Source of the DNA: Botrimarina sp. | GTDB taxonomy: Bacteria > Planctomycetota > Planctomycetia > Pirellulales > Lacipirellulaceae | Direction: 5' to 3' | Length of the DNA: 64,000 nt | NCBI GenBank assembly: GCA_965263145.1 | Contig: OZ253585.1 | Location: 261,668 to 325,667, forward strand | Part shown: positions 5,415 through 33,474 of the stretch, one piece after another | How the letters are laid out: each line of letters begins with the position of its first letter | How positions within the stretch are numbered: the first letter of the stretch is position 1 | Translations under genes and position numbers: made by a program | The notes under the pieces: generated by a model | What the model was told of the DNA's origin: nothing | What the model saw: only the letters and a program-made list of their open reading frames with translations | The model's database searches: none

Positions 5415-6055
5415 TTCAAATGGAAGAACCATCAGATGTACCTGAGTTGACTCCTGAGCAACAGATTCTCTTTGATATTGAAACGGATAAAATCCTTGAA
5501 AATGTCCCCGAGGATAAAGTGGAAATTAGTAATCAGGATGAGCAACAGTTAGAAGAGGTGCTTAATCTGTTGCGAAACAAGGCTGCTGCTCGGGAAGAGG
5601 AAGCAAAGGTCATCCCAAAGAACGATCGTAAACCTATTAAAACTTTATCAATCGATCCCATTCCAGCTCTTGCCGCTGCTGAGCTAGTGAAAGCAACCGT
5701 TGACTGGGAAGATGGTCAGATTCGCTTCTTGCAATCCCCCATGCGATCGGACTTGGCAATCGAAGTACTGGTGAATGAAGAGGCCGCCGGAAAATACCGT
5801 GAGGCTCTTTTTCTGCTCTCTCTCAGTCTATCCGAGTGGTCACTAATCGTTATACCGGATGAATCGGCAATTTTCTGTGGAGTAACTGCTGAAGCGTTCT
5901 CAGGGGGAGCAACCATTTCCTATGAGTTTGTCTCAAAGCAAGCTCTCAGCAAAGAGTACCTACCGGCGCTCCAATACTCAAAAGAGAATTTGCGTTCACC
6001 AAGGTCTCTCAAGCTATATCGTGAACTGATAAATAAGGTTGAATCGCAATCGTGA
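5399..6055 (+). CDS. Hypothetical acidic protein (218 aa)
   Basis: ORF overlaps the upstream gene end by 16 nt and the downstream gene by ATGA (6052-6055), so it is translationally coupled. Confidence 0.4.
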   Translation: MPGRIIQMEEPSDVPELTPEQQILFDIETDKILENVPEDKVEISNQDEQQLEEVLNLLRNKAAAREEEAKVIPKNDRKPIKTLSIDPIPALAAAELVKATVDWEDGQIRFLQSPMRSDLAIEVLVNEEAAGKYREALFLLSLSLSEWSLIVIPDESAIFCGVTAEAFSGGATISYEFVSKQALSKEYLPALQYSKENLRSPRSLKLYRELINKVESQS

Positions 6056-8187
6056 GCCACCCCTCCTTCGATCCGGTTGATTCTATCAAGTCAGCGATAG
6101 CCATTGGAAATAATGGTCTCATTACGAATCCATTCGATCTGATTGGTCTTATCGCTTCCGCTTCCGAAGTAGAATCACCTAGCCGAGAACTGCTCTGGAG
6201 AAGACTTTTTCTAGAAGCTCCGCTTCCCTACTGGAATGTCGTCAATTGGGCCAAGCAAGTCACCGAATCTCAACTTACAGAAATAGCTTCAAGCACGGTA
6301 TCTACTGGCTGGGAATCGCTCCAACCTTCAACAGGAACAATCGTTCTTAGGGAGGTTTTTACTGAGATAGCCAAGCGGTTTGATGAGTTTGATCCTGACC
6401 TCTATTCTTGGGAACGTCCCGACCCAAACAAGGTATCTCTTCATCGTTTGAAGTACCTCTTAGGACGTGACCTAGCAAGAAGCTACGTTCAAGAGCAAAT
6501 TCCCAATGGTCCTCGAACCAGTCGCAGTGAATTGCTAGCTAGCAATCGAGCGGCTTGGCAAGAGTGGATCGAAGTCAATGAGAAGGTCGGATATCACCTA
6601 GGTTCGGTTTGTGAGGCAACCTCGCTTGCTCTTGATCATGTGGTTTCTCGGCAAGTAACCCCAGGCATCAATGGAATCGGTCGTAGTCATATACTTCTCG
6701 AACAGCTCAACGTTAATCTCAACTCAACCTCCGCCATTATCACCGCGAACATCTTGCCGCTTACCGAGCAGCATCAGCATCTTGATGGAATCTTGGTGCC
6801 CGACCTCCGCGAAAATGGTCTCTTGGTTATTGCTCCTGATTTCTTGGAGGGGGTCTCAAAAGCTTGGCAATACGCAAGAAGAGCTACTCCCTCGCAAGGA
6901 CCTAGTATGCTTTGCTTCTCGGTCAGACCTAAGTTGGCGACTGTCATTCAAGATCTTTCGGGCAGATCGGCAGAGCTGGCTTCGCTTGCAGCTATTGAAT
7001 CAGCTCTGAAGGAGATCGTCTTACGACCTGATGCGGCAGCTTCAGCCACACTCGAATACTCTGAGCCAGAAGTAACAATTGAGGACCCAAAAACTGGTAG
7101 GGCAAGTTTCGAAAATAAGAAATTCTCAGCAGCGAAAGACTTTAATATCTCTACTGTTGTTGTAAATACTGAGGTTGCCAGAGAGTGGAAAACTATTGAG
7201 CAGCAAATTAGTGACACCAAACGTCCAAATGACCCTGATGTGCTGGCAAGTGAATTCTACCGGCGTGATGCCCTTCAAATACTCGAAACGAAATCCCTCT
7301 GGAAACTTTCTTACTACATTCCTGGCGCTATCACCTTGGCCTTTATTGTCATGGCGGTCTGCTTTTGGCAGTTCTATAAAATGAGTGCCAGTCCCGTTAA
7401 CGCTGATTATATTGTTCATGAGGCAAAGCTGCCTTTTGTGGTCACAGCCCTTGTCGTGAGTGAAATGCTGACTCTCGTTCTATGCCTCCTGATAGGACTA
7501 ACGTGTCATCGATCGATCCGACGTTCGCTTGATAGTGAACGATCCGCCTGGATCGCCTTGGCGGTTTCTTCGGTCATCGTTCTGCTTTCCCAATACCTCC
7601 CGATCGGTGTACGATATGAAGGGTTACTCGATACGCCCCTCTACTCGGTCCTCTTTGGTGAACCACAGATTACGCCACAGCTCGTCATTGCAGCCGGAGG
7701 ACTTGGATTCTTACTGATGCATACCACCTCACAAACAGCAGGGTTTATTGCCATTCTGTTTGGAGTTTCTGCTTTTACGATCCGCCTTATCCTAACACGT
7801 GCTCATAGCGAACCGATCTATGAAGATCGTTGTGAGCTGCTCAAAAAGGATTGGCGGTTTAGCGTCGCGCTGATGGTGATGCTGATGGCAGTCGTCATGA
7901 TGTTTTGTCTGACACGTAACGTTTTCTGGTACTACTATCTTACGACCCTTCCCAACGTTCCGATGATCGACAATGGTGGCTCACTACTGCTTGTGGTGGT
8001 TCCACTGCTTACGATTAGTCTCGTTATCATTCTGTCAGTAGGATTGGTTTGGATCTTCGTTATGCAAAAGTACTTAGCCAATGTGGTTCGCACAGCTCAA
8101 GGCCGATCAGGCTATACAACTGCTGACGTCGTAGCAACGATGCCACCTCTGGCAAGACTCCTCTATCACCTGAAGCCAATCGACTAA
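6052..8187 (+). CDS. Large membrane protein (711 aa), soluble N-terminal half and multi-TM C-terminal half
   Basis: Long ORF. Hydrophobic helices run from about residue 420 onward (YYIPGAITLAFIVMAVCFW, ALVVSEMLTLVLCLLIGL, LLLVVVPLLTISLVIILSVGLVWIF). Confidence 0.5.
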   Translation: MSHPSFDPVDSIKSAIAIGNNGLITNPFDLIGLIASASEVESPSRELLWRRLFLEAPLPYWNVVNWAKQVTESQLTEIASSTVSTGWESLQPSTGTIVLREVFTEIAKRFDEFDPDLYSWERPDPNKVSLHRLKYLLGRDLARSYVQEQIPNGPRTSRSELLASNRAAWQEWIEVNEKVGYHLGSVCEATSLALDHVVSRQVTPGINGIGRSHILLEQLNVNLNSTSAIITANILPLTEQHQHLDGILVPDLRENGLLVIAPDFLEGVSKAWQYARRATPSQGPSMLCFSVRPKLATVIQDLSGRSAELASLAAIESALKEIVLRPDAAASATLEYSEPEVTIEDPKTGRASFENKKFSAAKDFNISTVVVNTEVAREWKTIEQQISDTKRPNDPDVLASEFYRRDALQILETKSLWKLSYYIPGAITLAFIVMAVCFWQFYKMSASPVNADYIVHEAKLPFVVTALVVSEMLTLVLCLLIGLTCHRSIRRSLDSERSAWIALAVSSVIVLLSQYLPIGVRYEGLLDTPLYSVLFGEPQITPQLVIAAGGLGFLLMHTTSQTAGFIAILFGVSAFTIRLILTRAHSEPIYEDRCELLKKDWRFSVALMVMLMAVVMMFCLTRNVFWYYYLTTLPNVPMIDNGGSLLLVVVPLLTISLVIILSVGLVWIFVMQKYLANVVRTAQGRSGYTTADVVATMPPLARLLYHLKPID

Positions 8188-9184
8188 CGTTGAAGTGATG
8201 GAGTAGTCACTTTATTGGAGAGGCTCTCAGTAAGTACCTGATTCCAATCCGCTCCTCGCTTTACGGGCCGGTCACCGCGGAACTCAATATCCGACCTACC
8301 AGTTTCGGAAACGATATCCATAAGTTGATCCGTTAAGCGGTCACCCGCTTGATCATTATCAAAAGCGGCTACCACCTGCGAATCTTCTCGGAGTTTTTCT
8401 ATCGCGGAGCGAATAAGGGGTGGCTGGTGAGGGTTCATTTGACCGCTGATTGAAGCAACCCGAAGCCCTCCTCCCCGTTGACCGCCATGTAGGAGATTGC
8501 ATCGAGCCCACTCTCGGCTATTGCAAGTGTCCGATCATTCCTAAATCCGGCAGATATCCAAAGTCCTTTCTTACCGCCCTTACTAAAAAGATTTACTCCT
8601 TTTCCTTTGATTTCATAGCCGGTGAGAGATGGCTGGGCATCTCCCGTCTCAAGACGTCCCCAGTGAGGGAAGACAATCGATTTTCGTACCGGGCAATGAC
8701 GAATTCTGCCAGCGAGTCTCTCGCTCTGCAAAAGCTCAAACGGAACACCTCGGACTTTGCAGAGATAGTTACTCGCATCTTCGATCGGCTCAAACCTTGC
8801 GTATCGTGCAGCAACTCCCAGAAGGTCCGGTTCACTTGGTTCAATCTTCGCTTGGTACTGGTTCTGCTGTTTTCGCTCTAGTTCGCTGTGGTAGCTAGTT
8901 CCAAGAAAAGGCCTTAAAAGTTGTCGCACTCTACCGAGAGTGCAACCTGGCTCAATGACCCGCTGCGCGAAGTCAATTACGGTTCCTGCCGAACTAGGGT
9001 CGCTTGTGCTGCAATAGACATAATGATTACCTTGTTTGGCGATAATGATTTTATCACTTCCGTTGCGCATCAGAACCGAATGGCGAGTCGATTTCTTCCG
9101 GTCAATCTCGAATCCGTAGGCACTTGCTACCAAACTAAGATTGAGTTGCTTAAAAGCGTTAAGCTCACTACTTCTATCGAACAT
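8184..9184 (-). pseudogene. DUF3991-Toprim (TraC-primase-like) protein, interrupted by a frameshift into 8435..9184 (249 aa) and 8184..8438 (84 aa)
   Basis: The upstream part has a DUF3991-like N-terminus (LNLSLVASAYGFEI...NHYVYCSTSDPSSAGTVIDFAQ) and ends with the Toprim glutamate block TLAIAESGLDAIS. The downstream piece carries the Toprim DxD block VVAAFDNDQAGDRL. A single Toprim domain is therefore split over two frames, with the frame switch near 8435-8460 next to a GGGG run. Confidence 0.55.
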
Positions 9185-9770: not shown

Positions 9771-10541
9771 CGGTACTCGTTTGGTAACTGTTGCATCTCT
9801 TGCCACCCTACTACACCTTAGGCACATTACGCAAACGATTTGTACCCGCGCACTCCGGCTGATATCTAACTGCCATGTAACTGAAATGCAACTTCCCATG
9901 CACCATCGGCTTGCTACACATGTCGCATCATGAAGCTGGGAGGAATGAGGCAAGAATCATGCTACCTCCTTACGACGCTAGATTGTCGCAGCGTGTGTCA
10001 CTAATACTTTTCTTTTTGTTTCAACGATTTAGACATTCCATGGTGCAAATGCACCGCGACATGATCTGATGCACCATGCTGCATATGCAGCAAGAAGTAG
10101 CACCGCTTTGTCTCAATGCCTGATGGCATGGCAGCAGGTGACAGCTTGGCATGCTACCTAGCTGATCAAATGTCTCAGCATGTAGCAGTACGTCGTATCT
10201 TCTGCTTTCCTTACTGTCAAAGCAGTTGTGGTCCCTACTCCGCGTTTTGCAGCAATAATGCGATGCTATCTAGCAACGCTACACAGCGTTGCATTTTTTG
10301 TCGATATCTGAGGAAAAAACAGGTAAGGTAGTTTTGTGGCTAGCCGAATCGTGGCCAGCTATTCTCATCGCTTTGGTTGTTCTGACTAAAGCAATCTTAT
10401 ATGTCAACTTTTCACCCAAGGAGGAGCGTCTACTGATCATCTTTGTAAAATGAAAAAGCCACCATGAAGGTGGCTTTGTAGGAATATCGAGCGAAGCTCT
10501 GTGATCATTAGCATCTTCACAGTACGATAGCTTGGTCTTCA
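9771..10541. promoter_or_regulatory. Palindrome-rich non-coding region between the divergent KfrA-like and Rep-like genes (candidate operator, iteron or origin)
   Basis: Perfect palindromes GGTGCAaaTGCACC (~10041-10054), TGCTGCATATGCAGCA (~10077-10092) and GCAACGCTacacAGCGTTGC (~10267-10286). Repeated CATGCTACCT (9967, 10150) and many GCATG/CATGC motifs. No convincing ORF. Confidence 0.35.
10452..10485 (-). terminator. Rho-independent terminator-like hairpin, minus orientation
   Basis: AAAGCCACC-atgaa-GGTGGCTTT stem-loop. Read on the minus strand it is followed by TTTTTCATTTTA. It sits about 60-130 nt upstream of the Rep-like gene start, which is compatible with a countertranscript. Confidence 0.35.
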
Positions 10542-11414
10542 TTGCAATTCTTTATTGAACTTGCAACGGTTTCTTGCACACTTTTTACGGGGAGGGGAAA
10601 GAGTCGCTTAGAAGATATGCAATCACCAAGACCAGCACCTACCAAAGCGCGGGAGTGTAGTAGGGGAGAGAGGCTCGCCAAAATACGTCAATTACAGCAA
10701 CAAGAAATAGAGAAACAGCTCATTGCTAAAACACTAAAGAAATCGGTGTCATTCCATGATAGCAAACCAATCGGCTACCAAAGGCCTTCTTACAATACTC
10801 CCACTTACTGGAGAGACAGTGCGCGTGGCTGGATAACAGAGACAGAACAGCAACAAGATCATGCTGAGTTTGAAGTAAGGCGGAAGAGGGGGCTTCGGTC
10901 CGTTGGAACCAAAGCTAAGCCAGCTTTGCGTCATAGTCGGCCTCCGCCTGGAAAGACGAAACAATTCGCCAAACCAATGTCAACCGAAGCGGCACGCGAC
11001 GATCGGCTTACGCCTCAATCAAAAGCTCTTTTGCAAATCATCACAGCTAGAACCGGGCAGGGACGTTCGACAGATACTACCAAGACTACGCTAGGTGCGA
11101 TAATGAGTCGGCATGCTCGTTCCATCCAGCGTTATATTCAAGAGCTAATTAAGTTTGGGTATATACGAACTCAAACCATCAAGAGTCGACGAACTGGCTA
11201 CTATATCGGTCTTAGGATATGGATTATGGATAAGGTGCTTCCATTTTATAAGGAGACTTCTGAGCATTATGATCCGACTCTCTGGCATCGCTTTGCCAGA
11301 AATGACGGAATGTCAGAGGAGACAAAAGAGTCCCTTACTAATAATAAAAATATAATAAAGAGACTTCTGGGGGCGGATAAACCACCTTGGTTTGATGAGT
11401 TGGCTTACAAATAA
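10542..11414 (+). CDS. Putative replication-initiator-like protein (winged-helix C-terminus). The start may be the ATG at 10617.
   Basis: The C-terminal LLQIITARTGQGRSTDTTKTTLGAIMSRHARSIQRYIQELIKFGYIRTQTIKSRRTGYYIGLRIWI resembles RepA-type winged-helix DNA-binding domains. A GGGAGGGGAAAG RBS-like stretch precedes the 10617 ATG. Confidence 0.35.
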   Translation: MQFFIELATVSCTLFTGRGKSRLEDMQSPRPAPTKARECSRGERLAKIRQLQQQEIEKQLIAKTLKKSVSFHDSKPIGYQRPSYNTPTYWRDSARGWITETEQQQDHAEFEVRRKRGLRSVGTKAKPALRHSRPPPGKTKQFAKPMSTEAARDDRLTPQSKALLQIITARTGQGRSTDTTKTTLGAIMSRHARSIQRYIQELIKFGYIRTQTIKSRRTGYYIGLRIWIMDKVLPFYKETSEHYDPTLWHRFARNDGMSEETKESLTNNKNIIKRLLGADKPPWFDELAYK

Positions 11415-11643
11415 CCTTGCCAGCCTTTCTCTAAATCAAAATCTCAAGAATCTGATATCAAACTGCCAAGCAGAGAGTAGTGCTGACCTAATCAATTGGG
11501 CAATAGGAATAATAATCTCTTCGCAACGTATGATACGCTGCTTTGGCAACCAAACCTTTCCGAATGCTTTCTCAACGTTAAGCTACTGCATCCAAGCACA
11601 AAAATGGGTCGATCAAAGTCGCAAGCTTTGGTAAGATGTCCAA

Positions 11644-13215
11644 ATGACCACTAGCCCACTAAAGATAGCCGAGCCGTTATCTCTTCTAGATACCCTGGAA
11701 GAATTACAACAAGCTTATCTTGCTGAAACTACCCCGGAGATACGCAAAGCGCGCGGTCAGTTTTTTACGCCATGGCCAATAGCCAACTTCATGGCTGAAG
11801 CTTTGGACTTATCGGAGGGTCCGCTAAGAATCCTTGACCCGGGAGCAGGGGCAGGGGCTCTTTCTGTGGCTGTCTGTGAAAGGTTACTTAAAGAACCAGC
11901 AGGTCGATTAGTTCATTTTGATCTATTCGATACCGATAAAGATGTCATTGCTTATCTTGATCAGGTAATGTCTGAATGTCAGTCAGCTATGTCATTAGCG
12001 GGGCATTCAATGACTTATAAGATTTGCTCAGAAGATTTCGTCCTAACGATGGCTCCATGCCTTGGGCTCTCTCAAGAAGAGACGCCAACCTACGATGCCG
12101 TTATCGCTAATCCACCGTACTTCAAGATCAATAAGGCCAGCCCTTATTCTTCCGCTATTCCTGAGATCATTCATGGGCAACCGAACATCTATGCCATCTT
12201 CCTTGCCGTTGCAACTTCTTGCTTAAAAGAGGGTGGTTCGCTAGTTTCAATCACTCCTCGCAGCTTCTGCAACGGTCTTTATTTTCGTGCATTTCGCAAG
12301 TGGTTTCTTGATCGGATGGCATTAGATCAAATCCATCTCTTCCGCTCGCGCACCAATACGTTTCGGGAAGCTAAAGTTCTGCAAGAAAGTGTTATTACGG
12401 TTGCCACCAAACAGTCTAAGCGAAACAAATCGATAACGGTTAGCCGTAGTGATGATCGTGAATTTCAATCTCTTCAAGAACAAAACTTGTCAGCTGAGCA
12501 AGTTGTTTCCAAATCTGATCCAGATCGATTCATCTATCTACCTGAGACAAATCAAGATGCTGAAATCGTAAAATATGCCCAGCAATGGAAATTCCCCTTT
12601 GAAGAACAAGGCTTACGGATTTCCACCGGACCCGTTGTAATGTTTCGAGCTAAAGAGTTTTTGCTTGAGGATGAGACAAAAGGAGTCCCGTTGCTCTCAG
12701 CTCACAACATTCGTCAGTTTCAAACTGTCTGGCCTATCACAAAAGCAAAATGGCCCGTCGCCTTCGCCGATACCGAAGACTCTCGGAAGCACCTCTTGCC
12801 AACCCGCAACTACGTACTTCTCAAACGCTTCAGTTCAAAAGAAGAGAGGAGGCGTCTTACTGCCGGATGCCTCTTTGCAAAAGACCAGAACTATGAACGC
12901 CTAGCGATTGAAAACCACCTAAATTACATTTATCACACGGAACGAGAACTAACCGATCAGGAAACCCGTGGTGTGGCTGCTATTTTCAATTCAGTATTCT
13001 TTGATAGGTACTTTCGAACCCTGAGTGGAAACACTCAGGTCAACGCGACTGAAATCAGAACCTTACATTTCCCCTCACTTGAGCTAATTGCCCGCATTGG
13101 GGAACGGATTTGCAATGCAGATGGGCTTGATCCAGTACAGTCAGAACATATCGTTCTAGAAGAACTTGGTGTCAACGGTTCTCTGAGAAGTTATTTAGAA
13201 AGTGTTGCTACATGA
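11644..13215 (+). CDS. Type II N6-adenine DNA methyltransferase, gamma class (Eco57I/TaqI/PstI-like)
   Basis: Motif I ILDPGAGAGALSVAV (FxGxG-like), then motif IV VIANPPYFKI (NPPY), then a long C-terminal TRD. This order is typical of gamma-class MTases. The size (523 aa) fits M.PstI/M.BsuBI. Confidence 0.85.
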   Translation: MTTSPLKIAEPLSLLDTLEELQQAYLAETTPEIRKARGQFFTPWPIANFMAEALDLSEGPLRILDPGAGAGALSVAVCERLLKEPAGRLVHFDLFDTDKDVIAYLDQVMSECQSAMSLAGHSMTYKICSEDFVLTMAPCLGLSQEETPTYDAVIANPPYFKINKASPYSSAIPEIIHGQPNIYAIFLAVATSCLKEGGSLVSITPRSFCNGLYFRAFRKWFLDRMALDQIHLFRSRTNTFREAKVLQESVITVATKQSKRNKSITVSRSDDREFQSLQEQNLSAEQVVSKSDPDRFIYLPETNQDAEIVKYAQQWKFPFEEQGLRISTGPVVMFRAKEFLLEDETKGVPLLSAHNIRQFQTVWPITKAKWPVAFADTEDSRKHLLPTRNYVLLKRFSSKEERRRLTAGCLFAKDQNYERLAIENHLNYIYHTERELTDQETRGVAAIFNSVFFDRYFRTLSGNTQVNATEIRTLHFPSLELIARIGERICNADGLDPVQSEHIVLEELGVNGSLRSYLESVAT

Positions 13216-14156
13216 GCCGCCTGAAAGAAGCACAAGTTCTACTCAAAGATTTAGGGATGCCATCTGCTCAATACAATGAGCGTTCAGCATTGACTCTGCT
13301 TGCATTGGCAGGACTTGGTCCCAAGGATAACTGGGAAGATGCTGCCCAGAATCTTCTAAGAACAGTTGATATCATGGAGTTCATCGCTGAGCATTACAAG
13401 AAAAGCTATGCGCCAAATAGCCGAGAGACTTTTCGTCGGCAGACTTTACATCAGTTTGTTCAAGCACGCATTGCCGATCACAATCCAGATGATCCATCAC
13501 GCCCAACAAACAGCGGTAACAATTGTTATGGTATCAGCGATGCAGCACTGATAGTCATTAAAACAGTGGGCACCGATGATTACAGCGAATCGGTGAAGAC
13601 ATTCCTTGCTGAACAAGGATCTCTCCAAGAGGCATATCGCAAAAAAAGAGAGCTATTGGAGGTCCCTTTGATTCTGCCTGATGGCACACAAGTAAAGTTT
13701 TCTCCAGGCAAGCATAATGAGCTTCAGGTTGCAATCATTGAAAAGATGGGGCCTCAATTTGTTCCAGGGTCACAAGTTCTGTATGTCGGTGATACAGCGA
13801 AGAAGTACGTTGTTTATGAAAAGGAATCGCTTGAAGGTCTCAATATCCCTATTACCAATCATGACAAACTCCCTGATGTCGTTCTCTATCAAGAAGAAAA
13901 TGATTGGCTGATTTTTGTTGAAGCGGTTACTTCGCATGGACCAGTCAGTCCCAAGCGATACATTGAACTTGAATCAATGTGCAAAGATTGCACCTCTGGG
14001 AGAGTTTATATTTCAGCTTTCCCCGATAGAGCTGAATTCCGCAAGTACGTTGCCGACATTGCCTGGGAAACGGAGGTCTGGATAGCCGATTCTCCAGGCC
14101 ACATGGTTCACTTCAATGGGCCAAAATTTGTTGGGCCATATGGAGAGGAGAATTGA
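13212..14156 (+). CDS. Type II restriction endonuclease partner (BsuBI/PstI-like candidate)
   Basis: Starts within ATGA overlapping the MTase stop, so it is translationally coupled. The 314-aa size and M-then-R order match PstI/BsuBI systems. No motif was confirmed by eye. Confidence 0.55.
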   Translation: MSRLKEAQVLLKDLGMPSAQYNERSALTLLALAGLGPKDNWEDAAQNLLRTVDIMEFIAEHYKKSYAPNSRETFRRQTLHQFVQARIADHNPDDPSRPTNSGNNCYGISDAALIVIKTVGTDDYSESVKTFLAEQGSLQEAYRKKRELLEVPLILPDGTQVKFSPGKHNELQVAIIEKMGPQFVPGSQVLYVGDTAKKYVVYEKESLEGLNIPITNHDKLPDVVLYQEENDWLIFVEAVTSHGPVSPKRYIELESMCKDCTSGRVYISAFPDRAEFRKYVADIAWETEVWIADSPGHMVHFNGPKFVGPYGEEN

Positions 14157-14229
14157 TTGAGTTAATCACAAGTTATTCAGAGTTGCTTTAGGTTGAGGAG
14201 CAGTCACTTACAGAAATACATGGGTACTA

Positions 14230-15207
14230 TTATGTGTAATGAGGTCTTTGTATGCACTCCAATATTTTTGAATCCAAATCTGGCAGTTCTATTTCTGTAG
14301 GAACCATAAGTTTAGGTTTTGATCCGCCTCTATGTTTCTTTAACTTCTTAAAGAGCGACTTACCTTCGACATTTATTAGCGATTCAAGGATTGCACCATA
14401 TGGCGATAAGTTTAATGTCTCGCAACCCCGTCCATTATTAGTTTCTTTGTCTACTATCTCCCACAGTTTTTCCTCAGTGAGTTCAAGTGATCTGCAAAGC
14501 TCTTGAATATTTTGTGCCAAGCGTTGTACATCGTCTGGCAAATTCTCATCTTGCCACCGCTTTTTTACAGCTTCTATCATCTTATGAAGCTTGTCGGTTC
14601 GCCAATCAGACTTAGCAATTGATTGAGAAGAGGAAAGGCTGCTTGCTTCGGCAATCGTTAATTCTGCGTTCTCTAACATAGCCTTTACTTGGTATGCGAT
14701 CCTACTACCCGGCCAATCCACGCTGTCTGATTTATAGACAACGTCATGCGTTGCGATTCCCCATGCATGCTGCAGGAAGGTCTTAATCTGCATTTCAAAA
14801 AGTAGTCCGTCGCATCCACTAGGTCTTGCTTGCCCATCACGCCAACGGACATATAAACGAAGTTCATCAAAGTCAAAATTACAAGGAAGATGCGGCGTTA
14901 TGTTTTGGGATTTTGGTTTACGAGATGCAATTTCGAACTCTTTACAAATCAGAGTTTCTGCCTTGGAAATCGAAGCCTGATTTTCAACTACCAAGCAACA
15001 AGCAAAAAGATCATCTGGTCGAGTACAATCGGTAACTCGACCTGTTTCAAGTTTTTGTGCAAAACTCTCAAGTTGCTTTAAGCGGGATTCGTAGTGCCAT
15101 CTTTTCTCTTTTATGGCTGACACTTTGGTGTCGACCATATTTTTAAGGTTATTATAGGTTGGCAAGAGTCCTGCGTGAAGGTCTCGAACAGACTTGGGCA
15201 CTTTCAT
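14230..15207 (-). CDS. RelA/SpoT-domain nucleotidyltransferase (small alarmone synthetase-like)
   Basis: LFEMQIKTFLQHAWGIATHDVVYK matches the RelA/SpoT synthetase signature (compare RelQ QIRTFAMNFWATIEHSLNYK). DLFACCLVVEN matches the D-x-GiRvi strand. It overlaps the upstream DUF262 gene by ATGA. Confidence 0.65.
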   Translation of the reverse strand: MKVPKSVRDLHAGLLPTYNNLKNMVDTKVSAIKEKRWHYESRLKQLESFAQKLETGRVTDCTRPDDLFACCLVVENQASISKAETLICKEFEIASRKPKSQNITPHLPCNFDFDELRLYVRWRDGQARPSGCDGLLFEMQIKTFLQHAWGIATHDVVYKSDSVDWPGSRIAYQVKAMLENAELTIAEASSLSSSQSIAKSDWRTDKLHKMIEAVKKRWQDENLPDDVQRLAQNIQELCRSLELTEEKLWEIVDKETNNGRGCETLNLSPYGAILESLINVEGKSLFKKLKKHRGGSKPKLMVPTEIELPDLDSKILECIQRPHYT

Positions 15208-16268
15208 GGATGCGTCTCAAAGAACTCACATAATGCCTCTAAACGTTTTTCGCGAGGTTTAAAGTCCGTACTCGCTCCACCAAACGAATCTAAGTATTTT
15301 AGAACTGGATCTTCGTCATGGTTTTGCGCATCTGAGGCTTGGTTACCTTCCTTCTTGGCAAGTGTGAATCTTGAAAGAAATTCTTCGTATATTTCAGCAA
15401 ATTGTTCTGCATCTGGTGAGTCGTCCCAATGAAGAGTCACAAAAGACCAAAGAGAATAAAAATGTGCAACCGATTTTGTACAAGCATCAATAGCTCTACC
15501 ATAATCAAACAAATCGATAATGAACTCTTTACTTCGATGAAAACACTCCTTGACAGAATCGGGATCAAACTCGTCATCTCTTTCGTCGACTAAGTCATAA
15601 TCTGAATAAAGATCATCGAGTGCATCCTGATCAAATCCTTGCTGTTCACCGTGAAGAACAACAGCTAGAAGTTCAGACATGAATTGAGCGTCCTTCATTC
15701 GTTTTGATCGTGTCTTAGTAACTAGCCCAATGTTCTCCCAATCGCTATCTTCACACTCATTCTCAATAAAATTAATCAGCCAACCATCCCACCTTGCATG
15801 CCTGAGCTCTTGTCGCTCAAGTTTTCTCATGTTTCGATTCAGCCTGTCAAACGCACGACTAACCTCTTGGGCCCCATCGTCTTCAAAAGTTAGGTGTTCG
15901 ACTGGTATAACGTAATCCCAGAATGTTGTGCGCTCATCATCTCCAAGCTCTTCCCATTTCTTGCCATTTAGACGCTGATCACCATACGCGTCATCAATAG
16001 CAATTTCACCATTTACGAACATAAAAAGGGTTTGCAGGCGCTGTTTACCGTCAACTACGGCATAGGTTGCCTTTTCTCCATCTACCATTGTCTTGTGTAA
16101 AAAAATTGGTGGACATGGATAACCTCGAAAAACAGTATCAAGGAAAAAACGCCTGTCCTTACGATTCCAAACACTTCGTCTTTGGTATGGAGGATCAAGC
16201 TCAAGCTGATCATTTCTTCGAGCATCAAGAAACCAACTAATATCTGCTGTTGAGGAACGGCGTTTCAT
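15204..16268 (-). CDS. DUF262 (ParB-like nuclease/NTPase) domain protein
   Basis: PPYQRRSVW, PPIFLH and AVVDGKQRLQTL are the hallmark DUF262 motifs (the usual DGQQRL block). At 354 aa there is no DUF1524 HNH partner domain. Confidence 0.75.
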   Translation of the reverse strand: MKRRSSTADISWFLDARRNDQLELDPPYQRRSVWNRKDRRFFLDTVFRGYPCPPIFLHKTMVDGEKATYAVVDGKQRLQTLFMFVNGEIAIDDAYGDQRLNGKKWEELGDDERTTFWDYVIPVEHLTFEDDGAQEVSRAFDRLNRNMRKLERQELRHARWDGWLINFIENECEDSDWENIGLVTKTRSKRMKDAQFMSELLAVVLHGEQQGFDQDALDDLYSDYDLVDERDDEFDPDSVKECFHRSKEFIIDLFDYGRAIDACTKSVAHFYSLWSFVTLHWDDSPDAEQFAEIYEEFLSRFTLAKKEGNQASDAQNHDEDPVLKYLDSFGGASTDFKPREKRLEALCEFFETHP

Positions 16269-16742
16269 GGCAATCTAATGAAGATAATGGATGTTGGATT
16301 AGGACATATTTGTTCTATCGTGCAATAAAATAGAACGGCTATTGTAGTATGATTCCATCAAATCTTATGGCAATAGGAGATAGGTAGAGCGTATCTCAAA
16401 ACACCGAATATTATCTCGTTCGTAGACAGGCCTGAAAGGAGACCGAAAGATTAGGAATCGATCCCGGGGCTTTAGACTACGAACCTTCATCGTCACAAAA
16501 TTGGGTGTTTTGTACTTATTGCAATCCAACACTGTCAGCTTAAAATCTCGAATGTTGTCCAAGGCGAAGGCTACCAGCTTAGGTTCACTCGGCTTGTCAA
16601 TCAGTGAACTTTATACAATAGCTGAAGTCGCTGCTACATAAAAAAACCCTGCCTGACTTGCGACCTACTGACATAAGAACTCTGCGGCAGGCTTAAAGCC
16701 TACTGGCCTACAGCGTGTCAAATTGTTCGACGAATTACTAAC

Positions 16743-17471
16743 TTGGTTGAACAGATGCGCACCAAAAACAATAAAATGAGCATACTAGAAAAGCTTGGAC
16801 TACCCGAATCTGCTGGTATTCTCTTTATTGCATTATCAATTGGACTTGCGTTGTCACCGTATGCATCTGGAGTAGAAGTTGGTGGTGTAAAGTTACCCTC
16901 AGTTACAGGGACTGTCGCAGTTCTTCTCGCGATCGCAGGACCATTGCTTGTCGCAGGATCGATCGCTTTGTTTTTTCCGTGGTTGACATTTCGCGCCCTA
17001 CCTGCACCGATTCAGCAGTCGAAACTACGATCAGGCATCACACACGGCTGGCAGCTAGGTCGCCTCGAGTTTATTGGTGGCAGCAACTTACAAGAAGCTC
17101 GATCAGTCGAAAAGGAAAGCAGAGAAGCCATTACCCTCTTATTGGCTGAAGACGGATTCAAGGATTCACTTACAGAACTCGATTGCAAGGGTATGATAAA
17201 TAAAATTTTGACTAGATACTCAGCAACTGATATCCAAAAGCACGCCGCAGTACTTAATGGGATAGGCGCTATGCGAGCTTCCCTGATCGGCGCATCAAGC
17301 GACCAGATTCACAACCAAGAGATGGAGACGCTATCTAGATCAACCTTTTTGGAGATTAATGAGGCAACTTTACCCGCTAAAGAACTGCTTGTTGAAGAAA
17401 TTGTCATGAAGAAACCGTCAAAGATTGTTGAATTAGTTGAGATAGTAAATTCTCACTGGTATTCTCTCTAG
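16743..17471 (+). CDS. Hypothetical membrane protein (likely start at the ATG at 16776, MSILEKLG)
   Basis: Two or three hydrophobic helices near the N-terminus (AGILFIALSIGLALSPY, VAVLLAIAGPLLVAGSIALFF). Divergent from the DUF262 operon. Confidence 0.4.
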   Translation: MVEQMRTKNNKMSILEKLGLPESAGILFIALSIGLALSPYASGVEVGGVKLPSVTGTVAVLLAIAGPLLVAGSIALFFPWLTFRALPAPIQQSKLRSGITHGWQLGRLEFIGGSNLQEARSVEKESREAITLLLAEDGFKDSLTELDCKGMINKILTRYSATDIQKHAAVLNGIGAMRASLIGASSDQIHNQEMETLSRSTFLEINEATLPAKELLVEEIVMKKPSKIVELVEIVNSHWYSL

Positions 17472-18037
17472 TAGGGCGAAGACCAGACTCCGAAGTTTGA
17501 ACAATACCAGAAAGTTTGCCACCCTGTAACTTGCGTAGGTGTCCAAAACTCTCGCAAGAACTTAACTAAAGATTTCCCAAGATTGTGAATAGTGAGTTAT
17601 CTCTAGCTTCCTGAAGGCGATGCTCGGCAGGTATTTCATGAGATTCACTCAGAAGCTATTACTAATTGCCTTTATTTATCTTCAAGTTGCTACTGCTGGT
17701 ACCAGTACACTTATATTTCAGGGTTTTGAAGAAGGAGAAGTTCGTAAGTTACACAAATGACCCAATTCAGTTCAATGAATTAGGTGGACCCAAGTTGGGG
17801 TGAAGGTCAAGGAAAGGTTGCTAAAACTTAAAAGATGGTTTCACTATTTGAGGGGGCATATCTTAAGCAAGGGTTACTGAAGCATATTACTAGTTCTCCC
17901 TATCAAATCGCTCGCATTTACAGAACCATGGAGAATACAACATCCAAAAAGCAATGGTATTTGGAGCGTTGCTGTTGAGGCTTTTTGCATTCACATGTTT
18001 GAAAAATCGAACTGTGACTAACTGAATTGGAAATATT

Positions 18038-18925
18038 ATGCCACAAAACAATCTACTTCTTATAGACGGACTTCATAATCATCAAATTTGGCCAAGTACT
18101 TCTGAGTGTTTTCGCCGTTTTCTAATAGAAGATGAATTGTTTAATGTTAAGTGCATTCGAGCCCAAATTGCTGCTAAAGAATTTACGGCAGATTTCTCTC
18201 AGTACGACGCAGTCATTTTTAATTACAACGCAAACCCTGGATCTGAAGTAGGAGATATCTGGCCGAATCACACAAGGCTAGCATTTGAGGAATATATGCG
18301 AGATGGTGGTGGCATGGTCGTTATCCATGCCGCGAATAACTCCTTTGCGCATTGGCCTGCATTCAATCAGATGACAGGGATAGGTGGTTGGGGGGGGCGT
18401 GATCGCAATTGGGGACCATATGTTTACTATGATCAGCAGAACAACTTGCGAATAGATCATTCTGATCTTGATAATCGTGCTGGCACTGATGGCCCACCTC
18501 ATGAATATATCGTTGATATACGTGACCCTAATCACCCAATTACTCAAGGACTGCCACAAAGATGGAAACACTGCATGGATGAAATATACGAGCGTCTTAG
18601 AGGCCCAGCAAATAATTTAAATGTATTGGCTACCGCATTCTCTGAAAACCGCGATTGGTATCAAGATGCGACCTATCGCCACGAGCCATTAGTGATGAAT
18701 CTTAGCTATGGACACGGACGAATCTTCCACTTGGCCATGGGGCACTGGACCTACTCAATTCAGTGTGAAGGGTTCATTACACTGTTAAAAAGAGGAACTG
18801 AATGGGCAGCAACGAATATGGTAACGCAAGCAGTGCCCTCCAATTTTCCTACAGAAACTGATGTGAGCTATCGAAAACTAGCATGGCCAGACCTTTCGAT
18901 CTCAGAGTGGACTCCATACCAATAA
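18038..18925 (+). CDS. ThuA-like (trehalose utilisation; class I glutamine-amidotransferase-like) protein
   Basis: YDAVIFNYNAN...MRDGGGMVVIHAANNSFAHWPAF matches the ThuA GGGxVxxH block. Confidence 0.6.
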   Translation: MPQNNLLLIDGLHNHQIWPSTSECFRRFLIEDELFNVKCIRAQIAAKEFTADFSQYDAVIFNYNANPGSEVGDIWPNHTRLAFEEYMRDGGGMVVIHAANNSFAHWPAFNQMTGIGGWGGRDRNWGPYVYYDQQNNLRIDHSDLDNRAGTDGPPHEYIVDIRDPNHPITQGLPQRWKHCMDEIYERLRGPANNLNVLATAFSENRDWYQDATYRHEPLVMNLSYGHGRIFHLAMGHWTYSIQCEGFITLLKRGTEWAATNMVTQAVPSNFPTETDVSYRKLAWPDLSISEWTPYQ

Positions 18926-18935
18926 TATTGAGAAA

Positions 18936-20720
18936 GTGGATGAGATGGCACTTATCTATCTTTGGACGGATCGTTATCGCCCAGATTTCATTGTAACTCT
19001 TCGAACGAGTTATGACTGGCAGAGGGATCTTCCTGGCCTATACGTTAAAGGTCGTTGGGAATTTGATGTCCCTTGGCAGGAATATCAGTCAGGATTTGAG
19101 TTTAAGTTTGTCCTTGAAAAGTCCCTATGGATGGAGGGCCAAAATCTAGTAGTTCCTCCATCACACACTGGTGCATTGGAGTTCACGGAAGGATCCGAAT
19201 ATGAAGACGGTATCGTATTCACTGAAAATATTTTTGATTCCAGGCAAGCCTCTCTTGTAGAGAACGGATACTTTGCACAAAAGTTTCTAGTTCCAAATCT
19301 CGACTCTCAAGTACATTACGATTTGATCGTAATTGGTTCAGGGTTTGGCGGAGGTATCGTTGCAGAACAGGCTGCTGATCGTGGACTTAAAGTATTGATT
19401 TTAGAAGCAGGTTCCTATCTCTTTCCGACGCACGTTGGCAACATTCCTAGGCGTCATTCTTTAAGTGGTAATTTCAATAAGAATATCTGGTCATTATGGG
19501 ATGACTTCAAAGTAAATGCATATCGAAACTCTCCAGAATCACAATATCAAGGTGGTTTTGGAATAAACCTTGGAGGTCGTTCGATTTTTTGGGGTGCTTA
19601 CATCCCCCGAATGGAAGATTTCGAGTTTTTTGGGTGGCCAGAAGATGTCAAGACCTACCTGTTTAGTAGTGGGTACGAAAACGCTGAAAATTTAGTAGGT
19701 CGCATAGAAAGCAAAGATGATTTTACAACCAATATGAGTAATCAAATTCGTGACTCATTAGTTAATTATCTTGTTAATCCACTTCCATTATCTGTTCGCA
19801 GGGCACCCAAAAACTGGGAGGCAGTTTCGAGTGGAGTCTTTTCAACAGCTGACCTTTTAATTGAAGCAAGTTTAACCGAAGGCCCACTGGGAAGACATAA
19901 CTTAACCATGAATCTTAATCACCGTGTAACTAAGATACTTAAGTCTGGCACGAGTGTAACCGGTGTTGAATGCCACGATCTTATTGCTGACATTAATCGG
20001 CGTTTCACGGCTGACCGAATTGTTTTGGCTGCTGGCTCAATCAATAGCCCAGTAATTGCCCTTAATAGTAACCTTGAAGATCCTTCTGGAAAAATAGGGA
20101 TAGGGTTGACAGATCACCCCATTTTTTACATCCACTTTTATGTTCCTGAGGGAAGCGATTTCTACAACTCTCGTGAAGCCGCAAAGTTGATGCTACATAA
20201 CATAAGGGCATCCACGCACACACACCGCTATGTTGCGTTCGTAGACTATGGTTCAGACCTCGGGCTTAGCCGCTTTCTAGATCCGGATACTTTTGCAGAA
20301 CATCAATCTCAGAAGCAAAAAAGAGCATTATGCGAAGTGGTCTTCCAATTCAGTTCTAGATTGGTAGATACCAACAAGGTGATTCTAGATGGTGTTTCTC
20401 CCACCGTCAGCATGGTCGATTGCCCGATCTCTTCTGCTGAACTCGATGAGATAAACAGCATAGCGGACCAGGTACGTGCAAGCCTTGGTGGTGAGTGGAT
20501 TGGGGAATGGACAACCGTCAGCAGGGCAGGTCTCGGCGGCGTTGCACATGAAGTTGGCACGCTTCGTATGGGAAATGATGGCGTCGTCGACTCCAACCTT
20601 AAATTCCATCACTACGACAATCTATTTGCATGTGACCTAAGCGTATTCCCAAGTTCTCCAGCTGCCAATCCATCACTAACCTTAGCCGCGCTTGCCTTGC
20701 GCCTTGCCAATAATCTTTAA
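18936..20720 (+). CDS. GMC-family FAD oxidoreductase
   Basis: N-terminal Rossmann YDLIVIGSGFGGGIVAEQAADRGLKVLILEAG. C-terminal GMC_oxred_C-like GTLRMGNDGVVDSNLKFHHYDNLFACDLSVFPSSPAANPSLTLAALALRLA. Confidence 0.8.
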   Translation: MDEMALIYLWTDRYRPDFIVTLRTSYDWQRDLPGLYVKGRWEFDVPWQEYQSGFEFKFVLEKSLWMEGQNLVVPPSHTGALEFTEGSEYEDGIVFTENIFDSRQASLVENGYFAQKFLVPNLDSQVHYDLIVIGSGFGGGIVAEQAADRGLKVLILEAGSYLFPTHVGNIPRRHSLSGNFNKNIWSLWDDFKVNAYRNSPESQYQGGFGINLGGRSIFWGAYIPRMEDFEFFGWPEDVKTYLFSSGYENAENLVGRIESKDDFTTNMSNQIRDSLVNYLVNPLPLSVRRAPKNWEAVSSGVFSTADLLIEASLTEGPLGRHNLTMNLNHRVTKILKSGTSVTGVECHDLIADINRRFTADRIVLAAGSINSPVIALNSNLEDPSGKIGIGLTDHPIFYIHFYVPEGSDFYNSREAAKLMLHNIRASTHTHRYVAFVDYGSDLGLSRFLDPDTFAEHQSQKQKRALCEVVFQFSSRLVDTNKVILDGVSPTVSMVDCPISSAELDEINSIADQVRASLGGEWIGEWTTVSRAGLGGVAHEVGTLRMGNDGVVDSNLKFHHYDNLFACDLSVFPSSPAANPSLTLAALALRLANNL

Positions 20721-20722
20721 TT

Positions 20723-22414
20723 ATGCCTCTAAATCAACTAAATGCGAATGAGAATGTCTCGGTCCCTATCCAAAATACAGACCTTTCCATCGATGTTCTT
20801 GGGCGTTTCGCTTGCAACACACTCCAAGAAGCACTTTCTAGTGGAACTTTTGACGTAATCATCGTAGGTTCAGGAATGTATGGCAGCTATACCGCTGCCA
20901 AAATCCGACACTATCACCCTGATTTACGGATACTTGTACTCGAAGCAGGACCTTTTTTAATCTCAGAACACGTTCAAAATCTATCTCGTATTGGGTATGG
21001 CATTTTCTCACCGGTTACTGGATTACCATACATATCACCAGCCTCACACCCTGTATCCGGCCATTATTATTGTGTTGGTGGTAAGTCTTTGGGATGGGGT
21101 AAATGGTCGCCACGATTGACAGAATCTGACATCAATCAGTGGCCTAGAGATATGGCTGACTACCTCCGTGCCAACTACGCACATGTTGAACAAGAGATGG
21201 GCGTTACGCCGCGTGAAGATTTTATTTATGGAGAGCTTGCTGACGCATTAAAATTACATATTGGCAATGTTCTGAAAAATAATTCTGATTTCGATGACTT
21301 ATCACACTCAATTGCACCGATAGCCGCACAATCTACTGCACCGAGCTCGGGTCTATACAGCTTTGATGCATACAGCAGTGTAATCGCCTTAATTGACGCT
21401 ATTCGTGGTGATATCAATGAAGCAATGGGGAATGACAGTAACCGAAAACTAATGCTAGTTCCTCGCTGTCGTGCACTAGGCATCAGATTTAATAATAATC
21501 AAGCGGTGGCAGTACAAGTTACCGAAGGTCGAGCTCAACGCTATCGTGAAGTACCGATAGCACATGATGGGAAAGTAATGCTTGCTCTTGGCTCTATGGA
21601 AACAACAAGGTTGGCTTTAAACTCCATACCTGAAGGGAGAACGCGAAACTTAGCTGGTCGTAATTTAATGGCTCATCTTCGTAGTAATTTCAACATACGC
21701 GTTCATCGATCTGAACTTGGACTTGCACTCAACAGTTCGCTTCAACCTGCTGCTTTTCACATTCAAGGAGAGATCGATGGCCGAAGATACCACTTCCAAG
21801 TTCTAGCCGCAGCTGATAATACTTATCGGGTTGAATCAATTCTGTACCGAATGGTACCTGATTTAGATAGCCTAAATGCTATCCTTGCAGCGCAAAAAAC
21901 AGACTGGGTTACGCTGAGAATCTTAACCGTTGGTGAGATACTTGGATTTCCCGATAAGGCTATCCATACCCCGAATACCTACTGGTGTGATCTTTCTCCT
22001 TTTGAGCATGACAACATCGCAGGACTTTCTATACCCAAACTATATTCTCATTGGGTCCTCCGTAATGAAGATAACCAATTTTGGAATTTGATGGACGGAC
22101 GGGCGATAGACTTTTCTAAATCACTTGTAGCAAAAGAGAGAAATATAGAGTTTCAACATGCAAATGATGATTGGAGATCTAGCCCTATAGATATCGGTGG
22201 CTTTAGGGATAGCCTTGGATCGACGTTTCATGAAGCTGGCACATTATGGATGGGCTCCTCCGCAGAAACCTCTATAACCAACACTAACGGGAGCTTCCAC
22301 GAATTCCCAAATCTTTATGTTTTGGATCAATCGTTATTTCCTACCGTCGGTTCGGCCAATCCCGTTCTAACAGGTCTAACTATTTGCAAGAAAATCGCGG
22401 AATCAATTGCTTGA
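20723..22414 (+). CDS. GMC-family FAD oxidoreductase (second paralog)
   Basis: FDVIIVGSGMYGSYTAAKI with the full sequence ILVLEAGPF is the N-terminal FAD fold. C-terminal GTLWMGSS...FPNLYVLDQSLFPTVGSANPVLTGLTICKKIAESI. Starts 3 nt after the previous gene. Confidence 0.75.
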   Translation: MPLNQLNANENVSVPIQNTDLSIDVLGRFACNTLQEALSSGTFDVIIVGSGMYGSYTAAKIRHYHPDLRILVLEAGPFLISEHVQNLSRIGYGIFSPVTGLPYISPASHPVSGHYYCVGGKSLGWGKWSPRLTESDINQWPRDMADYLRANYAHVEQEMGVTPREDFIYGELADALKLHIGNVLKNNSDFDDLSHSIAPIAAQSTAPSSGLYSFDAYSSVIALIDAIRGDINEAMGNDSNRKLMLVPRCRALGIRFNNNQAVAVQVTEGRAQRYREVPIAHDGKVMLALGSMETTRLALNSIPEGRTRNLAGRNLMAHLRSNFNIRVHRSELGLALNSSLQPAAFHIQGEIDGRRYHFQVLAAADNTYRVESILYRMVPDLDSLNAILAAQKTDWVTLRILTVGEILGFPDKAIHTPNTYWCDLSPFEHDNIAGLSIPKLYSHWVLRNEDNQFWNLMDGRAIDFSKSLVAKERNIEFQHANDDWRSSPIDIGGFRDSLGSTFHEAGTLWMGSSAETSITNTNGSFHEFPNLYVLDQSLFPTVGSANPVLTGLTICKKIAESIA

Positions 22415-22459
22415 CAAGCACTGCCTGACCTATGCAGCGAAATATTTACGCATCTGAAT

Positions 22460-23511: not shown

Positions 23512-23626
23512 GAATAAAGACAATAATTATTATTATCATTCCATACTAGAGAGCCAGTCGTCACCCATTAGGAGGACTAAGGTAACAGGTATTAAAGCAG
23601 CGGATATTATTTATTTAAGGTCAGAT

Positions 23627-27357: not shown

Positions 27358-27430
<73 letters not shown>

Positions 27431-33368: not shown

Positions 33369-33386
33369 AATAAATTATTTCATAAG

Positions 33387-33461: not shown

Positions 33462-33474
33462 TAAGTTCTACTAG

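Follow-up and report, generated by a model that had tools for sequence, protein, structure and literature searches.

Organization of the locus

The DNA analysed here, referred to below as the window, is a 64,000-nt stretch of the genome of Botrimarina sp. (Planctomycetota; GenBank GCA_965263145.1, contig OZ253585.1, positions 261,668 to 325,667 of the forward strand). It carries two overlapping minus-strand genes, A and B, which encode a DUF262 protein and a RelA/SpoT-fold protein, respectively, and lie beside the genes of a type II restriction-modification (R-M) system (Table 1). Comparison with related loci showed that A, B and a DNA methyltransferase gene make up a conserved cassette, to which an endonuclease gene is variably added. 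A first-pass annotation, made from the letters of the sequence alone, had placed open reading frames (ORFs) of 354 and 325 aa with an ATGA overlap at exactly these positions of the minus strand, and the peptide strings that it quoted (YQRRSVW, PPIFLH, DGKQRLQTL, EMQIKTFLQHAWGIATHDVVYK and DLFACCLVVEN) were all found in the translations.

Table 1. Features of the cassette and its immediate surroundings in the window
Feature	Coordinates	Strand	Description
Gene A	15204..16268	-	354-aa ORF; DUF262/ParB-fold NTPase domain followed by a helical (NsnA/BrxU/SspE-like) domain, no nuclease domain; proposed sensor/switch
Gene B	14230..15207	-	325-aa ORF; RelA/SpoT-fold pyrophosphokinase (residues ~1-195) and family-specific helical C-terminal domain (~200-325); proposed effector
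ATGA overlap, stop of A and start of B	15204..15207	-	Translational coupling; junction sequence given in the text
N6-adenine DNA methyltransferase gene	11644..13215	+	523 aa, Eco57I/gamma type, NPPY motif; conserved third component
BsuBI/PstI-family type II restriction endonuclease gene	13212..14156	+	314 aa; optional fourth component
Intergenic gap where the endonuclease gene and gene B converge	14157..14229	.	73 nt
Non-coding region upstream of A	16269..16742	-	474 nt; presumed promoter region of the A-B operon; the sole ORF inside is of 65 aa

The junction of the two genes reads ...CAT CCA TGA AAG TGC..., in which the ATG of B shares 4 nt with the TGA of A. The type II R-M pair that had been noted next to them is indeed present, with an Eco57I-type methylase gene and a BsuBI/PstI endonuclease gene converging on B. 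The methylase matched PF07669 (2.3e-15), PF02384 (6.3e-9) and the PADLOC model MTase_II (5e-131, 436 bits), and the endonuclease matched PF06616 (7.7e-63, 211 bits), PF17728 (4.8e-48, 163 bits) and the PADLOC model REase_II (381 bits). The pair therefore has the composition of a BsuBI/PstI type II system, i.e. an N6-methylase with the NPPY motif and an endonuclease with both domains of the family; its specificity for CTGCAG is assumed from the family. In this layout the A-B operon is presumed to be transcribed independently of the R-M genes. A pattern scan predicted no terminator inside the gap between the convergent genes and a single weak sigma-70-like match (16373-16346, minus strand) in the region upstream of A, and over positions 14050-16800 the counts of promoter and terminator patterns were not above those of shuffled sequence.

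Features of the predicted proteins

Protein A matched the Pfam family GmrSD_N/DUF262 (PF03235) at residues 24-159 with an E-value of 6.3e-22 (79 bits, cut-off 33) and gave no Pfam match to DUF1524 or HNH at E<=0.1, which agrees with the earlier description of A as a DUF262 protein lacking the usual DUF1524/HNH partner domain. Across 53 members of the family, Q29, R30 and W34 (QRxxxW) and D73, G74, K75, Q76 and R77 (DGKQR) are invariant. The structure model (predicted local distance difference test, pLDDT, 88.7) consists of an alpha/beta N-terminal domain and an all-helical C-terminal half. With Foldseek, the top match was BrxU of the GmrSD family (7p9k), accompanied by the ParB/Noc CTPases and SspE (6jiv); these relatives were given by fold comparison alone, a profile of the A family finding nothing among PDB sequences at E<=0.1. 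The best PADLOC match was NsnA of the Menshen system (5.8e-32, 109 bits), aligning residues 4-255 with model positions 47-293 of 385. Further matches were to PD-T4-2_A (68 bits) and, for the N-terminal domain, to a model of 372 positions named 'Type II restriction enzyme' (PDLC03418, 1.2e-11). Homologues of A numbered 2940 at E<=1e-3. Taken together, the PF03235, fold and NsnA matches indicate that A has the architecture of the sensor subunits of DUF262 systems, which a 2025 analysis described as ParB-DUF262 plus a helical DNA-binding domain (PMC12065111). DUF262 domains sense DNA modification in SspE and GmrSD and are the proposed sensors in Menshen (PMC12065111; PMC10952713).

The RelA/SpoT domain that the first-pass annotation had claimed for B is marginal by sequence and firm by fold. 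Pfam family RelA_SpoT (PF04607) was matched at residues 41-161 with an E-value of 4.9e-7 and 30.5 bits, the cut-off being 27, and the same domain is precomputed in most of 120 listed homologues. Matches to the Pfam families Resolvase and GIT1_C were below threshold and were rejected. The structure model (pLDDT 91.5) matched the small alarmone synthetases (SAS) RelP and RelQ with E-values of ~1e-8 and target template modelling (TM) scores up to 0.77. B thus has two of the features that define the RSH superfamily, namely a RelA_SpoT profile match above threshold and the synthetase fold with conserved catalytic Arg/Lys, Asp and Glu-x-Gln residues. All of 52 sequences share the catalytic set (R42-x-K44, K52, D66, E138-x-Q140, H147 and H154...K159) without exception, and B is very probably an active enzyme.

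The remainder of B (residues ~200-325) is a helical domain conserved throughout the family, with W218, G259, G261, S268, P269 and E305 invariant, for which Foldseek found no relative among solved structures. When a profile of the B family was compared with all PDB sequences, the best match was CapRel, a weak one (E=0.034), and no other toxSAS was matched at E<=1. Identity is 18-22% to CapRel and the toxSAS proteins and 12-18% to the housekeeping SAS enzymes. The label 'small alarmone synthetase' holds for the fold of B, but it does not establish an activity. The nearest solved relative by sequence, CapRel, carries the PDB title of a RelA/SpoT-fold tRNA pyrophosphokinase. B adds a structurally distinct new branch to the RelA/SpoT enzymes. 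It has 1325 homologues at E<=1e-3, and the listed relatives of both A and B are nearly all full length and ~45-58% identical, with E-values of 1e-100 or better, so that both can be taken as genuine genes. An exhaustive search of 1.84 billion cluster representatives gave 166 B-family representatives at E<=1e-30, nearly all of 320-330 aa and aligning end to end; among the best 150 of these no fusion of DUF262 with RelA/SpoT was found, and none was long enough to be one.

Pairing of A and B

Related loci were collected from metagenomes (80 loci), from genomes scanned with a single B sequence (2), by contig look-ups (10), from one plasmid and from viral contigs (3). Distinct loci in which 1.1 kb of sequence or more is available upstream of B number 54, and in every one of them the gene immediately preceding B, on the same strand, encodes a full-length homologue of A. 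From the stop codon of A to the start codon of B the median distance is 2 nt (range -23 to +24, n=70), with -4, as in the window, the commonest value, and the junction is tight in 70 of 70 related loci, in support of the translational coupling suggested earlier. Pairwise distances among A proteins correlate with those among B proteins (r=0.86), which shows that the two co-evolve. Conserved synteny in relatives, proposed in the first-pass annotation as a test of the pairing, was thus observed throughout, and to judge from these loci A and B are an obligate unit.

Linkage to a methylase and variability of the endonuclease

The first distant loci, from an Acidobacteria metagenome-assembled genome (MAG) and from Pedobacter, both contain an Eco57I-type N6-methylase gene and a BsuBI/PstI-related gene just upstream of A, and so do the loci of Fimbriiglobus and of a 473-kb metagenome contig. 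A census queried with the window proteins found the Eco57I-type methylase in 9 of 10 loci with at least 3 kb on both flanks, and independent gene calls with Pfam annotation placed one within 3 kb in all 9 long contigs. Apparent Eco57I-negative loci are mostly not exceptions, because they carry a shorter methylase of a second class, M2 (429-481 aa, N6_Mtase PF02384, NPPF motif), immediately upstream of A, as in L048. Of the 39 distinct metagenome loci in which the sequence upstream of A extends for 1.5 kb or more, 37 have an N6-adenine methylase of one class or the other, with intact NPPY or NPPF, beside A-B. With M for the Eco57I-type methylase and R for the endonuclease, the following architectures were distinguished: 1) M with a BsuBI/PstI endonuclease, 15 loci; 2) M2 only, 11 loci; 3) M only, 6 loci; 4) M with an ATPase variant, 2 loci; 5) M with a weak endonuclease-like match, 2 loci; 6) M2 with R, 1 locus; and 7) no methylase, 2 loci (L026 and L061). 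In L061 (4860-6716), the only well-flanked locus that lacks a methylase, the place directly upstream of A is taken by genes for a 302-aa DUF4238 protein and a 267-aa protein with a weak resemblance to HEPN.

An endonuclease is present in only 16 of these 39 loci; it is lacking in L003, L010, L052 and L068 and in all the M-only and M2-only loci. On a conjugative plasmid of Rhizobium sp. 007 (NZ_CP064190, 8.7-11.3 kb), A and B are accompanied by a convergent gene for an 'N-6 DNA methylase' and by no endonuclease gene; B is named there a hypothetical protein in RefSeq. In a Planctomycetaceae MAG (L087), a single 835-aa fusion protein (3424-5931), encoded directly upstream of A-B, combines the methylase with the BsuBI/PstI endonuclease. 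In two Bacteroidota-like loci (L002, 2633-4925; L074, 4671-6951), the N-terminal helix-turn-helix (HTH) domain of the BsuBI/PstI family is fused to an ABC ATPase (AAA_21/AAA_15; PADLOC PDC-M31A, 289 bits) and is followed by a PDC-M31B-like protein of 218-231 aa without Pfam match, so that the recognition domain of an R-M enzyme appears to have been re-used with another effector module.

Gene order also varies. Upstream M or R genes that share the strand of A stop a median of 27 nt short of it, and these M/R-A-B forms are single operons. The convergent layout of the window, M-R against A-B, recurs in L094, L095, L006 and L076; the Rhizobium plasmid has it too, but with a methylase and no endonuclease. 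A tree of A plus B broadly tracks the methylase class, with a few swaps; a few M+R loci fall within the M2 clade.

The methylase is kept while the endonuclease is lost, fused or replaced, and the conserved core is therefore methylase, A and B: the methylase is a near-obligate third component, and the endonuclease is a dispensable part. Accordingly, the earlier view of a two-gene cassette that merely sits beside an R-M pair was too narrow. With a methylase in 37 of 39 loci and in 9 of 9 long contigs, the R-M pair of the window belongs to the cassette, and the unit is one of three to four genes.

Distribution and genomic context

Named sources of the cassette belong to Planctomycetota, Acidobacteriota, Bacteroidota, Verrucomicrobiota, Thermodesulfobacteriota/Desulfobulbaceae, Clostridiales and Alphaproteobacteria. 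The A-B pair was absent from 50,697 phage records and was found in 3 of 2.9 million viral contigs, two of these copies being decayed. Damaged copies, which in L089 and L093 are on cellular contigs, include L089, with an insertion sequence (IS) element (HTH_Tnp_1 and rve) between B and the methylase; L090, with an insertion between A and B; L092, with A frameshifted and B truncated; and L093, which holds the closest relative of the A of the window (58% identity) and in which both B and the endonuclease are frameshifted. These copies may be pseudogenes or assembly errors.

In some relatives the cassette has other defence genes nearby. That of L087 lies ~2.7 kb from a CBASS-like operon (10677-14282) with AAA, Cap8, bacterial HORMA and SMODS genes. 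In the Acidobacteria MAG (L001), a second, unrelated RelA/SpoT-like ORF of 205 aa (7845-8462, minus strand) is located ~0.9 kb downstream of the cassette, with two small ORFs between. In Fimbriiglobus ruber (L003, 9070-11447), B is followed by a 414-aa protein without Pfam or PADLOC match and then by an N6_N4 methylase, and in L096 (7061-9353) the genes after B encode an N6_N4-type methylase and a GIY-YIG protein. The cassette thus sometimes has a second R-M-like module directly next to it.

The first-pass annotation had placed A and B in a defence island inside a mobile element. The second part of this description is supported by apparent leftovers of a mobile element that had integrated here: a DUF3991/Toprim gene resembling the primase genes of conjugative elements (8184-9184, minus strand), apparently split into ORFs of 249 and 84 aa that overlap by 4 nt, and a gene for an HTH_36 protein (10542-11414). 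The first part is not, since there is no rich defence island and no further recognisable defence gene near the cassette of the window; metabolic genes occupy 18-22.4 kb. An IS-type DDE transposase gene (DDE_Tnp_1_5; 22551-23500, plus strand) is split into ORFs of 130 and 136 aa and is probably a frameshifted or inactivated IS copy. Positions ~10000-27000 have a GC content of 0.40-0.46, compared with about 0.47-0.53 in most of the flanking sequence, and this low-GC stretch ends near a tRNA-Lys gene (27357-27430, minus strand), as a genomic island might. A search of the rest of the window for repeats, 14 nt or longer, of the tRNA-Lys region (27341-27450) found none, and no island boundary could be defined.

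Other features of the window include a 242-aa ORF divergent from A (16743-17471, plus strand), which has no Pfam, PADLOC or NCBIfam match and is conserved beside A-B in none of the related loci; a 711-aa ORF that is hydrophobic over long stretches (6052-8187, plus strand) and an 822-aa ORF with a lipase/esterase-like serine motif, GHSLGG (23627-26095, plus strand), both without Pfam match; and four tRNA genes (Leu-CAA, Asp-GTC, Leu-TAG and Gly-GCC) within ~450 nt (33294-33738, minus strand).

Possible function of the cassette

A methylase that is retained, a nuclease that is optional, and an intact NTPase coupled to an intact RelA/SpoT enzyme are most simply explained if A is a sensor and B an effector. 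From this combination we infer a function in defence, the two roles, and gating by methylation. We put at roughly 50% the probability that the cassette is a methylation-linked system in which the methylase marks self, A serves as sensor and switch, and B is a growth-arresting pyrophosphokinase effector. CapRel, the closest solved relative of B by sequence, acts in antiphage defence. RelA/SpoT-fold toxins are known to arrest growth in toxSAS systems (PMC7229694).

In such a system the methylase would mark host DNA with N6-methyladenine (m6A). Protein A would be a DNA-binding switch dependent on nucleoside triphosphates (NTPs), akin to the sensor modules found in SspE, BrxU/GmrSD and NsnA, and would report unmethylated or foreign DNA, either directly or through the target recognition of the methylase, as Mod does for Res in type III systems. 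Being made stoichiometrically with B by translational coupling, A may keep B inactive until the trigger arrives. Freed or activated B would then move pyrophosphate from ATP to an acceptor, for which the 3' end of tRNA (as with CapRel, FaRel2 and PhRel2) and adenine or guanine nucleotides (as with Tas1, FaRel and RelQ) are candidates. Translation and growth would halt. The resulting abortive-infection arm would support DNA cleavage or, in endonuclease-free loci, stand in for it; in loci that have an endonuclease, this enzyme would form a first layer based on the same mark.

A more specific version, which we advance tentatively and with less than even confidence, is that of R-M-like immunity with a non-cutting 'restriction' arm, i.e. 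abortive infection gated by methylation and executed by a pyrophosphokinase that hits translation or nucleotide pools. On this version, the endonuclease-free M-A-B and M2-A-B loci would represent the system at its simplest, and the M-R-A-B arrangement of the window would be a two-layer form.

Several points weigh against a methylation-linked sensor-effector system. The known DUF262 sensors GmrSD and BrxU recognise modified rather than unmodified DNA, and we know of no direct precedent for the proposed direction of sensing. B clears the PF04607 threshold narrowly, and depletion of CTGCAG in the window is not significant (11 sites against 18.6 +/- 3.9 expected). A-B occurs in L061 and L026 with no methylase in the available flanks, and the census of loci, being seeded from B homologues, covers A only alongside B. 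The near-absence of the pair from viral collections fits a role in host defence but is no proof of it. Finally, the methylase swaps in the A plus B tree would be awkward if A reads a sequence-specific mark; they are easier to reconcile with recognition by way of the methylase protein than with A itself reading the sequence.

The swaps would also be easier to understand, given a protein-protein interface, if A-B were a guard comparable to PrrC. This anticodon nuclease is silenced by the EcoprrI type Ic enzyme and is activated by Stp of phage T4. By analogy, A-B would watch the integrity of the methylase or R-M protein complex and would fire when a phage anti-restriction factor inactivates it. 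Like prrC, the effector gene is embedded in an R-M locus, and adjacency is always kept although gene orders vary. However, about half of the loci have a methylase without endonuclease, and guarding an orphan methylase has no obvious benefit; moreover, A retains the DNA- and NTP-binding ParB architecture of known DNA sensors. We therefore consider a guard of this kind unlikely.

To the same degree we doubt that the cassette is a plain toxin-antitoxin or addiction module, with B a toxSAS-type toxin, A its antitoxin, the mobile element or the R-M genes the stabilised cargo, and the methylase a hitch-hiker. Linkage to a methylase in 37 of 39 and 9 of 9 loci, across phyla, with two methylase classes and in several gene orders including tight M-A-B operons, is far above what co-location in islands would explain, and the methylase is kept where the endonuclease is lost or replaced. 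A is, furthermore, a 354-aa enzyme with invariant NTPase motifs, unlike the small antitoxins or hydrolases of known toxSAS pairs. What such a module would account for is the overlapping bicistronic architecture, a hallmark used to find toxSAS pairs (PMC7229694), the co-evolution of A and B, and the signs of mobility, namely the mobile-element remnants in the window, the copy on a conjugative plasmid and the decayed or IS-disrupted copies.

The roles might also be reversed, A being a DNA-targeting, nickase-like effector and B a regulator or signal maker whose pyrophosphorylated nucleotide loads the NTP pocket of A. ParB-like nicking and DNase domains are documented, including a ParB-methylase fusion in B. 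cereus (PMC5512222), the N-terminal domain of A matches the restriction-enzyme model PDLC03418, and A has a conserved nucleotide pocket while B is a nucleotide maker by fold. But A has no recognisable nuclease domain or motif, the nuclease of characterised DUF262 systems is a separate DUF1524 domain or another partner protein, and RelA/SpoT-fold proteins of conflict systems are effectors wherever tested, all of which makes this arrangement improbable.

Rather more improbable is a type IV-like complement, in which A would sense modified foreign DNA, such as hypermodified phage bases, and the pair would only complement an R-M system. BrxU, the closest solved fold of A, is documented to complement BREX in this manner (PMC10952713). 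Such a sensor should nevertheless occur with any type of R-M system and with complete R-M pairs, whereas here one broad group of N6-adenine methylases is kept and the endonuclease can be lost. Tight M-A-B and M2-A-B operons would, moreover, be pointless for a type IV sensor that acts by itself. An ordinary housekeeping SAS making (p)ppGpp for stress signalling, with no part in conflict, can be given very little credence, because the closeness of the B fold to RelP and RelQ is outweighed by the strict pairing with a DUF262 protein and a DNA methylase, the patchy spread across phyla, the plasmid and decayed copies, the 12-18% identity to housekeeping SAS enzymes and the extra conserved C-terminal domain.

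If the proposed methylation-linked system is real, it would join two things not previously linked, self/non-self discrimination by DNA methylation and growth arrest by the RelA/SpoT family. It would be widespread, since B proteins number more than 1,300 and come from at least seven phyla, and its methylation mark would gate an abortive-infection effector and not a nuclease. It would also offer a tractable three-gene model of how nuclease-free DUF262/ParB NTPases, such as those of Menshen, PD-T4-2 and Dazbog, pass a signal to their partner.

Comparison with known systems

The first-pass annotation recognised no named system in the A-B pairing, and this still holds. In PADLOC 2.0 (2023 copy) there is no model for the cassette, and only partial matches were obtained (NsnA, 109 bits; PD-T4-2_A, 68 bits; PDC-S33, 35 bits). 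The last of these, a single-gene candidate, aligned residues 8-152 of B with model positions 41-177 of 349 (34.7 bits), short of full length, and matched the B of an M2-type locus with 27.9 bits, so that the homology is confined to the catalytic domain. Searches of open-access papers and bioRxiv preprints found none that joins DUF262, GmrSD or ParB with RelA/SpoT, alarmones, pyrophosphokinases or toxSAS in this sense; matches to 'SpoT' were phage spot assays, and matches to an H. pylori pan-genome and a phage course were judged unrelated. With B labelled a 'hypothetical protein' in RefSeq and no PADLOC 2.0 model to match, the cassette is invisible to current annotation of defence systems. The cassette is made up of known types of module in an architecture that we have not found described.

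Among type II systems, the M and R proteins of the window are typical BsuBI/PstI members, and M-R fusions like that of L087 are covered by the PADLOC/REBASE-derived model PDLC03359. We found no description of a BsuBI/PstI-type system with a conserved DUF262 and RelA/SpoT-like pair.

CapRel and the toxSAS proteins (FaRel, FaRel2, PhRel and PhRel2, and the type VI secretion effector Tas1) share with B a marginal similarity that does not place it in any validated subfamily by sequence. toxSAS genes stand in a conserved, often overlapping operon with a cognate neutralising partner; the operon of A and B is overlapping and strictly conserved, and A would be a candidate for such a partner. However, the partner in toxSAS pairs is a small antitoxin or hydrolase, whereas here it is a 354-aa ParB-fold NTPase together with a conserved DNA methylase, and the paper that reported the discovery of toxSAS mentions no DUF262, ParB, methyltransferase or restriction partner (PMC7229694). 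CapRel is a fused toxin-antitoxin protein encoded by a single gene; B is not, and its C-terminal domain is unrelated.

Menshen (NsnABC) and PD-T4-2 resemble the cassette in having a DUF262 protein without DUF1524 and an effector encoded by a separate gene, and A is NsnA-like. But Menshen requires the ABC-ATPase NsnB (DUF3696) and the inPIN-nuclease NsnC, neither of which adjoins A in the window, where the neighbours are B and the 242-aa ORF and the cassette includes no ATPase gene. PD-T4-2 pairs its DUF262 protein with a HEPN protein (PF18735; PMC10952713), and B has no HEPN match. A RelA/SpoT effector and an obligate methylase are absent from both systems. GmrSD and BrxU likewise have a DUF262 NTPase domain followed by a helical domain, and A contains their DGxQR motif; A lacks, however, the C-terminal DUF1524 His-Me/HNH nuclease domain found in GmrSD, BrxU and SspE. 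The cassette is, moreover, linked to a methylase, whereas GmrSD and BrxU act against modified DNA.

With PrrC-EcoprrI the cassette shares the embedding, in an R-M locus, of an effector that does not cleave DNA and targets translation, a role that for B is only proposed. The families are unrelated, and PrrC is an ABC-ATPase-anticodon nuclease tied to a type Ic complex, whereas in the cassette the endonuclease is dispensable and the methylase is not. In the SspABCD-SspE and Dnd systems, as proposed here, DNA modification is linked to a DUF262/ParB NTPase that reads the modification state (PMC12065111; PMC10952713), and A matches the fold of SspE (6jiv). The differences are that in the cassette a single methylase presumably provides the modification, in the form of m6A and not of phosphorothioation, that A has no DUF1524 nickase, and that the effector is a separate RelA/SpoT-fold protein.

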